A stretch of DNA of 43,121 nt, from assembly GCA_964585895.1 (NCBI GenBank), contig CAZPFP010000002.1:1-43121 (forward strand), given 5' to 3'. This DNA comes from an uncultured Gammaproteobacteria bacterium. GTDB lineage: Bacteria > Patescibacteriota > Microgenomatia > PFEM01 > JAHIFH01. Positions 37,157-40,918 of this stretch are shown one piece after another. The position numbers and the translations under genes were made by a program. The notes beneath the pieces are model-generated. The model ran no database searches. It was not told where the DNA came from and saw only the letters and a list, made by a program, of their open reading frames with translations. The stretch's first letter is position 1; each line of letters starts with the position of its first letter.

Positions 37157-37486
37157 CTATCTTATAATCGCTCCCGGAGGCAGGTCAGGAGCAGGAACAA
37201 GCACCGCTTTGTTTTCGACTTCGGCACATAAAATCATTCCCTGGCTTTCCTCACCCATCATTTTCTTTGGTTCGAGATTGGTGACAAAGATAAAGTTTTT
37301 GTTGATTAAATCCTCCGGCTGATACCACTCCGCAATTCCCGCCAAAATTGTTCTTGGCTCTTTTTCCCCCAAATCAACTTTCATTTTAATTAGACTATGG
37401 CTTTCAGCAATTTTTTCGGCTTCCAAAACTTTACCAATACGTAAATCTAAACGCTGGAATTCGGAAAAAGAGATAAGATTACTCAT
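37157..37486 (-). CDS. tRNA-binding domain protein (CsaA/Trbp111/MetRS C-terminal-like)
   Basis: ORF track, 109 aa, with LDLRIGKVLEAEK...LEPKKMMGEESQGMIL. It overlaps the trpS stop by 4 nt. Confidence 0.8.
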   Translation of the reverse strand: MSNLISFSEFQRLDLRIGKVLEAEKIAESHSLIKMKVDLGEKEPRTILAGIAEWYQPEDLINKNFIFVTNLEPKKMMGEESQGMILCAEVENKAVLVPAPDLPPGAIIR

Positions 37487-38466
37487 AATAACCCCATTGC
37501 TTCCTTAGCTTCCTGAAGGGTTTGTTTAGCGATTTTCGAACAATATTTTCGCCCTTCCTCAAGAATTTTATCAACCTCTTCAGGGCGCCCTTCATAATAT
37601 TTCCTTCTTTTTTGGATTGGTTTTAATTCTTTATAAATGGCTTCAGCTAATTTATCCTTCAACTCAATATACTTAATTCCCTTACCCAAATATTGTCTCT
37701 CATATGACTGACGAGCTTTCCTACCCATAAATAATTCCACTAGCTTTAGTAAATTAGCCGCTCCGCCTTCTTTAGGAACTTCTCCCCCTTTACCAGTATC
37801 AGTTCGGGCTTTGGTTAACCTTGCTTTAATCGTTTTTAAATCATCAGTCAAAAGAATATGGCTACCTTCAATTGTTTTACTCATCTTTCCTTCTCCAGTT
37901 AAAGAAGGAATATATTCACCTTTAGTGGCAAATCTCTGCGGTTCAGGAAAAATAGGTTTAAACATCCGGTTAAACTTCCGGGCAATTTCCCTCGTCAATT
38001 CCAAATGGGGCTCCTGGTCAACCCCTACAGGCACTAACCCTGCTTTATAAATAAGGATGTCTGCCGCCATCAAGACCGGATAATATAAAAGTCCAAAATT
38101 AACATACTTGGGAAATTGGAGTTTTTTATCCTTATAAGTAGGCAGTTGTTCTAGTCGGGAAACCGGGTAAATTGTCCCAAAAAGATAAGCCAGCTCAACA
38201 TGCTCCGGTACTTGAGATTGAATCATTAAATGACATTTCTTAGGGTCTAAACCGGCACCAAGATAATCTAAAACCACTTCATGAACATCCTGCTGAAGGG
38301 TTTTAGGGTCATAGGGAGTGGTGATGCCATGTAAATCAACCACACCATAAATGCAGTCTAAATCTCCCTTCTCTTGAAGGGCAATGTAGCCTTTAATCCC
38401 GCCGAGATAATTGCCTAAATGCAATCTCCCGGTCGGTCTGGAACCTGAATAAACTCGTTTTTTCAT
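37483..38466 (-). CDS. trpS: Tryptophan--tRNA ligase
   Basis: ORF track, 327 aa. Class I motifs are HLGNYLG (HIGH) and KMSKT (KMSKS). Confidence 0.93.
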   Translation of the reverse strand: MKKRVYSGSRPTGRLHLGNYLGGIKGYIALQEKGDLDCIYGVVDLHGITTPYDPKTLQQDVHEVVLDYLGAGLDPKKCHLMIQSQVPEHVELAYLFGTIYPVSRLEQLPTYKDKKLQFPKYVNFGLLYYPVLMAADILIYKAGLVPVGVDQEPHLELTREIARKFNRMFKPIFPEPQRFATKGEYIPSLTGEGKMSKTIEGSHILLTDDLKTIKARLTKARTDTGKGGEVPKEGGAANLLKLVELFMGRKARQSYERQYLGKGIKYIELKDKLAEAIYKELKPIQKRRKYYEGRPEEVDKILEEGRKYCSKIAKQTLQEAKEAMGLL

Positions 38467-38467
38467 C

Positions 38468-38542
38468 TGGCAGGCCCGCCAGGGCTCGAACCTGGAATAA
38501 GGGTTTTGGAGACCCTCGTGATTCCAATTTCACCACGGGCCT
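38468..38542 (-). tRNA. tRNA-Trp (anticodon CCA), with 3' CCA encoded
   Basis: Hand-folded, 75 nt. Acceptor AGGCCCG/CGGGCCT. D arm GTGA-AATTGGAA-TCAC. Anticodon arm AGGGT-CTCCAAA-ACCCT. T arm CCAGG-TTCGAGC-CCTGG. Discriminator G plus CCA. Confidence 0.9.
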
Positions 38543-38550
38543 ATTTCCAC

Positions 38551-38578
38551 TAAAAAACTCGCCGCCGCTCGGCGAGTT
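38551..38578 (-). terminator. Intrinsic terminator/attenuator hairpin 9 nt upstream of tRNA-Trp
   Basis: Minus strand: AACTCGCCG-AGCGG-CGGCGAGTT (perfect 9-bp stem) running into a six-T run. Confidence 0.65.
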
Positions 38579-38608
38579 AACTTTTAATCCACGCAAACTC
38601 TCCGGCGG

Positions 38609-38668
38609 TTATTTACCGGTTAGTTTACCCCACCAAGAAAGAATTGTTTCCTTGATTTTTTCTAGCAT
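38609..38668 (-). CDS. Candidate 19-aa leader peptide with tandem Trp codons (MLEKIKETILSWWGKLTGK)
   Basis: Hand translation: ATG at 38668, TGG TGG at 38635-38630, TAA at 38611-38609. It starts 7 nt after a -10 box and ends directly at the attenuator segments. Confidence 0.55.
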   Translation of the reverse strand: MLEKIKETILSWWGKLTGK

Positions 38669-38675
38669 TGGGGAT

Positions 38676-38704
38676 ATTTTAACTCAGTTGAGAATTGGTG
38701 TCAA
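38676..38704 (-). promoter_or_regulatory. Sigma70-type promoter for the leader/tRNA-Trp/trpS unit
   Basis: Minus strand: TTGACA (38704-38699), an exact 17-nt spacer, then TAAAAT (38681-38676). Confidence 0.6.
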
Positions 38705-38716
38705 GTATGATAAAAT
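38688..38716 (+). promoter_or_regulatory. Sigma70-type promoter for the plus-strand CAT-tRNA pair
   Basis: TTGAGA (38688-38693), a 17-nt spacer, then TAAAAT (38711-38716). tRNA 1 starts 12 nt downstream. Confidence 0.55.
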
Positions 38717-38727
38717 TGCAGGCAACG

Positions 38728-38797
38728 TGCGGGGTAGTGTACGGTGGCACGTGAGGCTCATAATCTCACAGATCAGGTTCAACCCCTGACCCCGCAA
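38728..38797 (+). tRNA. tRNA with CAT anticodon (Met family; elongator vs initiator not resolved), compact 70 nt
   Basis: Hand-folded. Acceptor TGCGGGG/CCCCGCA. U8 A9. D arm GTGT-ACGGTG-GCAC. Anticodon arm TGAGG-CTCATAA-TCTCA. Variable loop CAGA. T arm TCAGG-TTCAACC-CCTGA. Discriminator A, with no encoded CCA. Confidence 0.65.
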
Positions 38798-38833
38798 CAC
38801 ATTCGACTCGCCCTTTCGGGCTCGCTCAGTGTT

Positions 38834-38875
38834 GTCCTGAGCCACTCGGTCCTGAGCGGTTCGACAGTCCTGAGC
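38834..38875 (+). repeat. Three direct copies of GTCCTGAGC in the inter-tRNA spacer
   Basis: Exact 9-mers at 38834-38842, 38849-38857 and 38867-38875, read directly. Confidence 0.8.
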
Positions 38876-38922
38876 TCACCGTCGAAGGACTCGTGGCCGA
38901 AGGGTTTGTCGAAAGGCAACCA

Positions 38923-38994
38923 GGCAGGGAGTAGGCTGGTGCCTTGGGACGTTTCATAAGCGTCTTTTAGTGGGTTCGAATCCCACCCCTGCTA
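38923..38994 (+). tRNA. tRNA with CAT anticodon (Met family; weak G1-U72 pair and A11:U24 hint at an initiator, not proven)
   Basis: Hand-folded, 72 nt. Acceptor GGCAGGG/CCCTGCT. D arm TAGG-CTGGTGC-CTTG (two wobbles). Anticodon arm GACGT-TTCATAA-GCGTC. T arm GTGGG-TTCGAAT-CCCAC. Position 8 is A, which is unusual. Confidence 0.6.
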
Positions 38995-39008
38995 CTAATT
39001 CTTTACTC

Positions 39009-39356
39009 TTAAAGAAACAGTCTCAGCCACCTCTGCCAATTAGGCAATTCCGGGGCAGGAGTAGAAGTAATTTCTCCAGTCCCACCAACATTGGGGGGCA
39101 AAATAACCACAGTTTCGCCTGGTTTACCCATATTCAACCTGTTTCTTGCCTCTTGCTCAACAAATTCCTCAGATTGATAATAATCTTCCTTCTTTAATAA
39201 TTCCTGATGCTCTTTCTCCAGCTCTTCTAGACGTTGTTGGGCTAGTTCTACCTGGTCTCCAGCCTTGAGTAAGCAGTAAATATTCCTAGAGAGGCTGATT
39301 ATAAGCCCAGTACCAATGATAATTATTGCAATCTTAATTAGGCGATTTCCCTTCAT
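39009..39356 (-). CDS. Septum formation initiator (FtsB/DivIC-like) protein
   Basis: ORF track, 115 aa. It has one N-terminal TM helix, a coiled coil (QQRLEELEKEHQELLKKE), then EFVEQEARNRLNMGKPGETVVI. Confidence 0.75.
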   Translation of the reverse strand: MKGNRLIKIAIIIIGTGLIISLSRNIYCLLKAGDQVELAQQRLEELEKEHQELLKKEDYYQSEEFVEQEARNRLNMGKPGETVVILPPNVGGTGEITSTPAPELPNWQRWLRLFL

Positions 39357-39364
39357 TTTCCCTG

Positions 39365-39393
39365 TTGACAGCCTCTCCTATAGGTGTTATTAT
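39365..39393 (+). promoter_or_regulatory. Sigma70-type promoter of the recombinase gene
   Basis: TTGACA (39365-39370), a 17-nt spacer, then TATTAT (39388-39393). The TTG used as a start by the ORF track is this -35 box. Confidence 0.55.
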
Positions 39394-39412
39394 GGGCTTG
39401 CTGCTCTTAATC

Positions 39413-40792: not shown

Positions 40793-40846
40793 ATTTAAAA
40801 TTAGAGAATTTTGTTAATAATAAATCCGCTTAGAGCGGTTTTTCAG

Positions 40847-40918
40847 TGCGCCCGCTTGGAATTGAACCAAGTACCTGTTGTTTATAAGACAACCGCTCTA
40901 CCAATGAGCTACGGGCGC
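40847..40918 (-). tRNA. tRNA-Ile (anticodon TAT)
   Basis: Hand-folded, 72 nt and canonical. Acceptor GCGCCCG. TA. D arm GCTC-ATTGGTA-GAGC. G26. Anticodon arm GTTGT-CTTATAA-ACAAC. Variable loop AGGTA. T arm CTTGG-TTCAATT-CCAAG. 3' acceptor CGGGCGC, discriminator A. Confidence 0.85.

Follow-up and report, generated by a model that had tools for sequence, protein, structure and literature searches.

A predicted tryptophan leader-peptide attenuator upstream of a tRNA-Trp gene abutting trpS in a small metagenome-assembled bacterial genome

The stretch of DNA analysed here, referred to below as the window, is 43,121 nucleotides (nt) of contig CAZPFP010000002.1 from assembly GCA_964585895.1, and our subject is the tRNA-Trp gene found there together with trpS, the gene encoding tryptophan--tRNA ligase (TrpRS), and the region upstream of both. 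The genome of the window (G000) amounts to 692 kb in 70 contigs and is 94% complete; like it, all the genomes compared were assembled from metagenomes, and numbers preceded by G, C and L designate genomes, contigs and loci. On the minus strand the encoded CCA end of the tRNA (38470-38468) is followed by a single G (38467) and then by the trpS ATG (38466-38464), an arrangement pointed out in an earlier note on this DNA and confirmed by the sequence, by ARAGORN and by reading of the open reading frames (ORFs). The features of the locus, in the order in which they would be transcribed, are as follows.

38676..38704, minus strand: sigma70-like promoter, TTGACA (38704-38699), 17-nt spacer, TAAAAT (38681-38676); consensus match.
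38609..38668, minus strand: leader ORF, MLEKIKETILSWWGKLTGK then stop, 19 codons plus TAA (38611-38609); sequence and conservation.
38594..38627, minus strand: predicted anti-antiterminator hairpin, GUAAAC..CCGGU(AAAUAACC)GCCGG..GUUUGC, with the leader stop codon in its loop; minimum free energy fold and RNAalifold.
38565..38608, minus strand: predicted antiterminator, CCGCCGG.GAGUU (38608-38596) paired with AACUC.CCG.GCGG (38578-38565, the terminator 5' strand and loop); constrained folds.
38552..38578, minus strand: predicted intrinsic terminator, AACUCGCCG-AGCGG-CGGCGAGUU then T6; 9 pairs, 6 of them GC, and a T-run.
38468..38542, minus strand: tRNA-Trp(CCA), A1-U72, discriminator G, encoded CCA at 38470-38468; ARAGORN and Rfam.
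38467..38467, minus strand: spacer of one base (G) from CCA to the trpS ATG; sequence.
37483..38466, minus strand: trpS, tryptophan--tRNA ligase, 327 amino acids (aa), with neither a Shine-Dalgarno (SD) sequence nor a promoter of its own; ORF and profiles.
37157..37486, minus strand: 109-aa tRNA-binding-domain protein (Trbp111/CsaA/MetRS C-terminal-like); PF01588, 1.2e-28.

The trpS product matches Pfam tRNA-synt_1b (3.9e-60) and NCBIfam TIGR00233 (286.9 bits versus a cut-off of 176.75), residues 1-326 aligning with profile positions 1-328. Because the profile is aligned from residue 1, and because there is no in-frame ATG, GTG or TTG upstream before an in-frame stop, the ATG at 38466 is the true start. 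In the HIGH-type motif (HLGN) the H stands at residue 16, in agreement with the earlier note. Two such starts were rejected: the next methionine is at about residue 80, and the TTG at codon 15 would cost the protein its first beta-strand and has a GGGAG only 1 nt away. The sequence GGCGGG in the acceptor/T region was also rejected as an SD, having a central mismatch to the 16S anti-SD, lying inside tRNA stems and being unconserved, and an internal promoter within tRNA-Trp was considered and rejected.

A scan of the minus strand for sigma70-type consensus found no promoter-like site from the start of the tRNA to the trpS ATG, the sole strong minus-strand site being the one at 38704..38676 upstream of the tRNA, and in every relative with a tight junction the bases preceding the ATG belong to the T-arm and acceptor stem of the tRNA. 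These results bear out the claims of the earlier note that trpS has no separate promoter and no SD. This leaves co-transcription with tRNA-Trp as the one reasonable interpretation, and the two genes stay linked in relatives; we infer the RNA step that the earlier note had put as a necessity. Contigs from four other DNA runs cover 38464-38470 with zero differences and the junction recurs in relatives, so it is no one-off assembly artefact.

The junction tRNA-Trp is genuine. It scores 58.6 bits with the Rfam tRNA model (gathering score 29), and when 11 orthologues are aligned, compensatory double changes are seen at 17 of the 22 cloverleaf pairs, with no variation at A1-U72, at the discriminator G or at the C after it. 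It is also the only canonical tRNA-Trp found in G000. A second tRNA(CCA), on the minus strand of contig C28 (1331-1402, locus L075; Rfam 52.3 bits), is atypical: the base before the anticodon is G where U is near-universal, the first acceptor pair is G1-C72, the discriminator is U, and CCA is not encoded. That gene is located within a tRNA cluster interspersed with small helix-turn-helix (HTH)-like ORFs, and also at L075 an Rfam tRNA match of 45.2 bits extends across 129 nt (C28:1193-1321, minus strand), uncalled by ARAGORN, which may represent an interrupted or intron-bearing tRNA. BLAST of the 75-nt tRNA against five relatives was too insensitive for paralogue counts and missed the junction tRNA of G010 itself.

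Upstream of the tRNA, the predicted promoter agrees with the consensus at 11 of 12 positions and is the best minus-strand site in 37300-39400. Its -10 hexamer is located 7 nt before the leader ATG (38668), and TTGACA-N17-TAAAAT/TAGAAT is found 7-9 nt before the leader ATG in G002, G004, G001, G030 and G010 as well. The leader ORF is probably leaderless; in G011 it is preceded by an SD (AAAGGAGG). It contains tandem Trp codons (TGGTGG, 38635-38630) and its stop is followed immediately by CCGCCGG. The predicted terminator ends 9 nt before tRNA-Trp, leaving no room for a further promoter, and the distance from T-run to tRNA is 9-15 nt across all variants. An Rfam cmscan of 37400-39400 (E<=1) returned only tRNA-type matches, with no Trp_leader or other curated leader family and no T-box.

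In silico folding of the free leader gave the hairpin with the stop codon in its loop together with the terminator (z = -4.0). When a ribosome mask was placed over the Trp codons, the constrained fold became the antiterminator, at about -20 kcal/mol versus -12 for the terminator alone, and with the mask at the stop codon the terminator alone was obtained. Masked folds yielded the antiterminator in 8 of 9 genome leaders, that of G006 doing so only with a +13 mask. Across 23 distinct leader variants the antiterminator duplex ranges from -15.0 to -23.2 kcal/mol (median -19.5) and the terminator from -8.9 to -11.9 kcal/mol (median -10.3). When the 5' partner was shuffled 300 times, no more than 5% of the shuffles equalled the antiterminator duplex energy in 20 of the 23. 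Counted by columns, 95.1% of the antiterminator cells are paired, versus 35-50% when the partners are slid, and in nine sequences the paired fraction is 92.9% for the anti-antiterminator hairpin and 100% for the terminator. Support for the structures is taken from the per-sequence duplex energies against shuffles, not from covariation. The predicted leader structures are thus conserved and mutually exclusive, although not covariation-proven, and the modelled architecture is that of a classical Trp leader-peptide attenuator, with its logic reproduced in silico.

Of the 61 genomes searched, with G000 among them, 58 gave a TrpRS match, and 30 loci were compared; these are close relatives, and the counts drawn from them are not independent observations. 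At 7 of the 30 loci a leader ORF with an invariant pair of tryptophans (WW) and a fixed stop is followed by the terminator, tRNA-Trp and trpS. The leader ORF, the WW pair and the stop position are kept in nine genomes; besides the 7 loci, the leader is found in G003 and G006 and, as a variant, in G014. The WW pair is invariant in 23 of 23 distinct leader variants. A covariance model of the leader gave matches in 10 of the 23 genomes of the order (8 clear, the G014 variant and 1 false) and in 10 of 151 sampled genomes of the class, only 4 of them real. Weak matches in G017 (from the order), G077, G103, G112, G114, G135 and G164 (two places) were rejected as terminator-like hairpins without a WW ORF. 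In G014 a WW leader (MKKFIEISFSWWKKLTG then stop) and a terminator are found directly before an SD-bearing trpS encoding another type of TrpRS, with no tRNA; because this leader adjoins trpS without the tRNA, the leader is tied to trpS regulation.

A pattern built from the invariant leader columns identified 22 metagenome stretches, and the leader ORF is present in 22/22. Downstream of it a complete tRNA-Trp was found in 20, the contigs of the other two ending too early. The trpS ATG is at most 7 nt from tRNA-Trp in 13 stretches, 0.3-1.25 kb away or beyond the stretch in 6, and contig-limited in 3, so that the juxtaposition described for the window is kept in relatives by both comparisons. The tight junctions L118 and L128 carry the other TrpRS type, the identity between types being 41%. 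The gene for the 109-aa tRNA-binding protein, whose start overlaps the trpS stop (ATGA), is probably part of the trpS transcript; it directly follows trpS at 7 of the 30 loci of relatives and is 1.2 kb downstream at an eighth.

At L034 (G003:C41), L114, L115 and L122 we observed insertions of 0.7-1.2 kb between attenuator and tRNA-Trp or between tRNA-Trp and trpS, and trpS then has an SD or promoter of its own; in G003 (L034) an HTH-like ORF comes after the terminator. A conserved, structured-looking GC-rich stretch upstream of tRNA-Trp, cut by the contig start, was seen at L061:1-290 and L062:1-390. Rfam gave nothing other than tRNA at L061, L062 and L019, and no family at gathering score for the GC-rich stretch.

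The sequence from the discriminator to the trpS ATG varies among the tight junctions. It is CCAG in G000, CTAG in G002, CTAAA in G004, CAGA in G030, CAT in G010, CTTAAAA in G001 and, if the ATG overlapping CCA is used, CC in G011, while the metagenome stretches have CCAA, CCAAA, CCGA, CTAA and CAAA. The distance is therefore 2-7 nt and most often 4. The encoded CCA is unconserved, being CTA, CAG, CAT or CTT in 5 of the 7 tight-junction genomes, and in G011 and L111 CCA and ATG have their A in common. If the cut falls behind the discriminator and CCA is then added, tRNA and mRNA would both stay whole in all the variants, as they would not with a cut after CCA, and for this reason we favour the former. 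The earlier note had proposed that 3' processing behind CCA would give trpS mRNA a 1-nt leader; the cut after the discriminator, with a leader of 4 nt in G000, fits better, and the effectively leaderless character of the message is the part of that proposal favoured by the relatives.

This last point comes from classing the 30 trpS loci. Seven abut tRNA-Trp and one (L021, in G037) abuts tRNA-Met, the latter read from the sequence where the script returned the class 'other'. A TATAAT-like hexamer 6-11 nt before the ATG, a leaderless-type arrangement, is present at 10; an SD was found at 5, both SD and hexamer at 1, and no clear class at 6. Because the relatives without the tRNA bear a -10 box or an SD before the ATG, leaderless-type expression of trpS is favoured. 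The 16S rRNA of G000 carries a normal anti-SD. By crude counts, with the most-upstream ATG taken as the start, 47 of 500 long ORFs of G000 have a strong SD versus 11 in a control window, and 63 of 500 have a -10-like hexamer 5-9 nt before the ATG versus 9 in the control. The leaderless mode is also made plausible by the first 40 nt of the putative processed trpS mRNA, which have little structure (-3.0 kcal/mol, z +1.56), 193 of 200 shuffles folding as well or better.

Abutment of tRNAs and ORFs exceeds chance in this genome. Five of the 42 tRNAs of G000 are followed within 0-5 nt on the same strand by an ATG-started ORF of at least 100 aa, versus 1.2% of random G000 positions (3.3% when any start is allowed), giving binomial p values of 1.4e-4 and 0.012. 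Besides tRNA-Trp and trpS, the pairs are these.

C13:6653-6741, tRNA-Leu(CAA), then efp after a gap of 1-5 nt.
C48:3739-3816, tRNA-Thr(CGU), then a 238-aa Ig-like protein after a gap of 1-5 nt.
C52:1286-1376, tRNA-Leu(UAG), then a 360-aa membrane-fusion protein (HlyD-type adaptor) after a gap of 1-5 nt.
C4:6696-6775, tRNA-Pro(GGG), then a 127-aa protein without assigned identity after a gap of 1-5 nt.

The product of efp, elongation factor P (EF-P), aligned to its profiles from position 1-2, which indicates that the efp ATG is a real start. In all five genomes of the family tRNA-Leu(CAA) abuts efp. By eye, TAAAAT or TAGAAT is found 6-11 nt before the efp ATG at 11 of 30 efp loci, and in G002, G004 and G001 a promoter is predicted just upstream of tRNA-Leu; it looks as if a leaderless gene had received the tRNA between its transcription start and its start codon. 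Together with the tRNA-Met that abuts trpS in G037, these pairs make abutment a general habit of the lineage, not one peculiar to the cognate pair.

Some further arrangements were seen among these tRNA genes. In G008 (L094, contig C2, about 1357-1500 as oriented) a second copy of a tRNA-Leu 3' half, comprising the variable arm, T arm and acceptor 3' strand, stands 7 nt behind a complete tRNA-Leu(CAA), and it is this copy that abuts the efp ATG. In G000, 3 of the 9 CCA-encoding tRNAs are followed by the next tRNA after 0-1 nt (Glu/Lys, Pro/Gly and Val/Phe, on C11, C28 and C25), and in those pairs the RNase P cut of the downstream tRNA would directly yield the mature CCA end. The genes for tRNA-Arg(CCU) and tRNA-Pro(CGG) overlap by one base.

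For processing of these transcripts, G000 encodes an RNase P RNA (119 bits), a member of the CCA-adding enzyme family, RNase Y (501 bits), an RNase J-like protein and PNPase; no match to the RNB family or to RNase E/G was found in this 94% complete genome. Encoded CCA is missing from 33 of the 42 tRNAs, and therefore a 3' endonuclease cutting at the discriminator, followed by CCA addition, must exist.

Following these analyses, we propose that the locus is a single transcription unit, starting from the promoter at 38704..38676, in which the leader peptide would be encoded first. With charged tRNA-Trp plentiful, the ribosome would reach the stop codon, which adjoins CCGCCGG and is part of the anti-antiterminator hairpin; this would let the terminator (38578..38552) form and transcription would halt 9 nt ahead of the tRNA gene. 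With charged tRNA-Trp scarce, the ribosome would stall on UGG UGG, leaving CCGCCGG.GAGUU free to pair with the terminator 5' strand and loop, and RNA polymerase would continue into tRNA-Trp, trpS and the small tRNA-binding-protein gene. Output would rise for exactly the two molecules that make Trp-tRNA. The tRNA 5' end would be released by RNase P, and its 3' end would be cut endonucleolytically, most likely as RNase Z does it, directly behind the discriminator G; the same cut would give a trpS mRNA with a leader of 1-4 nt, translated in the leaderless mode that many genes here seem to use already. We consider this model of an attenuator-controlled co-transcript, cut at the tRNA 3' end to give a near-leaderless trpS mRNA, rather probable as a whole. 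The earlier note held that the tRNA and its synthetase are physically coupled; the linkage is indeed conserved, and the regulatory coupling proper would be found upstream, in the promoter, leader ORF, terminator and antiterminator, which that note did not mention.

Several observations weigh against this model. The G004 leader does not switch to the antiterminator, the +10 mask included, and the alternative fold of the G014 leader is ambiguous, G014 ranking as no more than a probable variant. The antiterminator shows little covariation, with a single compensatory pair and an observed score reached by 66 of 500 shuffles, and in the nine sequences there are zero compensatory pairs in the hairpin or the terminator; these sequences come from close relatives, and the high paired fractions could be explained by kinship alone. 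The best RNase Z candidate of G000, again at 94% completeness, is a 255-aa protein of the metallo-beta-lactamase fold on contig C49 scoring 59 bits versus a cut-off of 293. In model bacteria encoded CCA inhibits RNase Z, and such precursors are matured by exonucleases after a downstream cut, a route that would destroy the trpS 5' end here. Leaders of up to 7 nt, as in G001, may suit leaderless initiation poorly, judging from work in E. coli. Finally, given the second tRNA(CCA) on C28, the copy linked to trpS may not be the sole source of tRNA-Trp.

Perhaps the precursor is translated unprocessed, by initiation on the AUG directly 3' of the folded tRNA, with the A-rich unstructured start (AUGAAAAAAC) recruiting the ribosome and the acceptor/T-arm helix standing approximately where an SD-antiSD duplex would. 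The first 40 nt after the tRNA are indeed unstructured, the helix starts 3-8 nt before the AUG in all tight junctions, similar to SD spacing, and no precise 3' endonuclease, of which none is securely identified in G000, would be needed. However, the relatives without the tRNA place a -10 box in this position and no structured element, suggesting that a free 5' end is the shared need; the tRNA, as the only canonical tRNA-Trp found, needs to be released to work, and a whole tRNA would likely clash with the ribosome at the mRNA exit. We regard initiation beside the folded tRNA as unlikely. Quite unlikely, too, is that the two products are mutually exclusive fates, a cut inside trpS followed by 3'-5' trimming by PNPase making each transcript either tRNA or mRNA, with the ratio regulatory. 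The presence of RNase Y, an RNase J-like protein and PNPase in G000 along with no canonical RNase Z match would suit it, as would the diversion of precursors with encoded CCA to the exonucleolytic route in model bacteria. Yet most junction tRNAs of the relatives, and 33 of the 42 tRNAs of G000, have no encoded CCA and call for an endonuclease at the discriminator, and the existence of five independent junctions with 3-6 nt between discriminator and ATG, and their conservation, argue that both products survive.

The tRNA could also act as an operator in cis, TrpRS binding the embedded tRNA and blocking processing or initiation, by analogy with the negative autoregulation of E. coli thrS and with a complete tRNA as the target. 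A cognate tRNA with A1-U72, G73 and a CCA anticodon, the tryptophan identity set, does abut the start codon, and the leader/tRNA-Trp module stands beside two TrpRS types that are 41% identical; non-cognate junctions (tRNA-Leu/efp and tRNA-Met/trpS) are equally tight, so that autoregulation is not needed to explain the arrangement, and we consider it improbable. In a last alternative, the small ORF and its hairpin would form a micro-gene that has nothing to do with the genes downstream and has its own constitutive terminator, tRNA-Trp and trpS being transcribed from an unrecognised promoter; this would be compatible with promoter scans that covered only the sigma70-type consensus. It seems very improbable given that in every variant the T-run and the tRNA are just 9-15 nt apart, that leader, terminator and tRNA-Trp (or trpS directly, in G014) are conserved as a unit, and that the WW pair is invariant in the 23 variants.

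With the attenuator-controlled, endonucleolytically cut co-transcript as the preferred reading, a broader interpretation may be put forward tentatively, its chances being in our judgement a little under even. It is that the lineage has a bacterial counterpart of mitochondrial tRNA punctuation, in which routine tRNA 3' cuts would make SD-free, near-leaderless mRNAs (trpS, efp and others) and replace the transcription start used by relatives. To this would be added a leaderless Trp attenuator forming a homeostatic loop, with charged tRNA-Trp as input and the tRNA-Trp and TrpRS genes as outputs, so that a tRNA gene comes under ribosome-mediated attenuation. Searches of a collection of open-access papers turned up no account of tRNA excision giving rise to leaderless mRNAs in bacteria, or of a tRNA gene behind a leader-peptide attenuator.

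From genome sizes of 0.5-1.8 Mb in the class sample and from the lack of L30 and L9 matches we infer that the lineage is similar to the candidate phyla radiation (CPR). If the interpretation is true, ribosome-mediated attenuation operates in ultra-small CPR-like genomes, on a tRNA gene and its synthetase, as a minimal feedback loop on tRNA charging in organisms unable to make tryptophan. Bacteria would then define mRNA 5' ends for leaderless translation by tRNA excision, a process linked so far to mitochondria, and gene finders and operon models for reduced genomes should allow for starts that abut tRNAs. The finding also points to a tRNA 3' endonuclease yet to be assigned in these genomes, and the model predicts trpS and efp mRNAs with 5'-monophosphate ends at the tRNA boundary.

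Two other features of the window were observed. A tRNA-Ile with the anticodon UAU, unusual for bacteria, is located at 40846-40918 on the minus strand, and only two tRNA(CAU) genes were found in G000; AUA may be read without a lysidine tRNA. Between the two divergent tRNA-Met genes, at 38834-38875, the minus strand reads GCTCAGGAC three times, the copies lying 15-18 nt apart.

Co-transcripts of tRNA and mRNA are exemplified by thrU-tyrU-glyT-thrT-tufB of E. coli. In Thermococcus kodakarensis a tRNA-Lys is located within the 5' untranslated region of TK0306 (PMC4247193). The locus described here would resemble these in having a tRNA and a protein gene on one primary transcript; in contrast, those cases keep a normal leader with its own ribosome-binding site, and here there is a spacer of 1-7 nt and no SD. 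The tRNA punctuation of mitochondria, where leaderless mRNAs arise from tRNA excision, is a hallmark of these organelles. As in mitochondria, tRNA genes directly flank protein genes at several loci and excision would set the ends of leaderless or near-leaderless, SD-free mRNAs; unlike the mitochondrial case, the genome is that of a free-standing bacterium, its promoters and terminators are of the usual kind, and only 5 of its 42 tRNAs are so placed.

T-box riboswitches control trpS in Firmicutes. Such control is mentioned in PMC1262725. As with a T-box, the charging status of tRNA-Trp would govern read-through of a terminator before trpS; unlike a T-box, of which there was no match, sensing would be by ribosome stalling and not by direct binding of the tRNA to the leader. 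In mycobacteria, leaderless short ORFs are described as amino-acid-responsive attenuators for cysteine (bioRxiv 10.1101/834739). The similarity is a leader ORF, probably leaderless, that is rich in the codons of one amino acid and would control a downstream operon; the mycobacterial system senses cysteine and controls cysteine-related genes, and it does not appear to involve a tRNA gene or a tRNA-defined mRNA 5' end.

The closest architecture is that of the classical leader-peptide attenuators, as in the E. coli trp operon and in the pheST operon with its leader pheM. Attenuators have also been predicted upstream of trpS in Streptomyces (PMC1262725). Like these, the predicted system combines a terminator and mutually exclusive hairpins with a short ORF in which codons for the sensed amino acid stand in tandem, and its output is a synthetase. 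It differs in matching no Rfam leader, in a leader ORF that is probably leaderless, and in its setting, a reduced CPR-like genome where no context of trp biosynthesis is seen; and, unlike the classical cases, the tRNA that reads the sensor codons sits between the attenuator and the synthetase gene and would itself be regulated.

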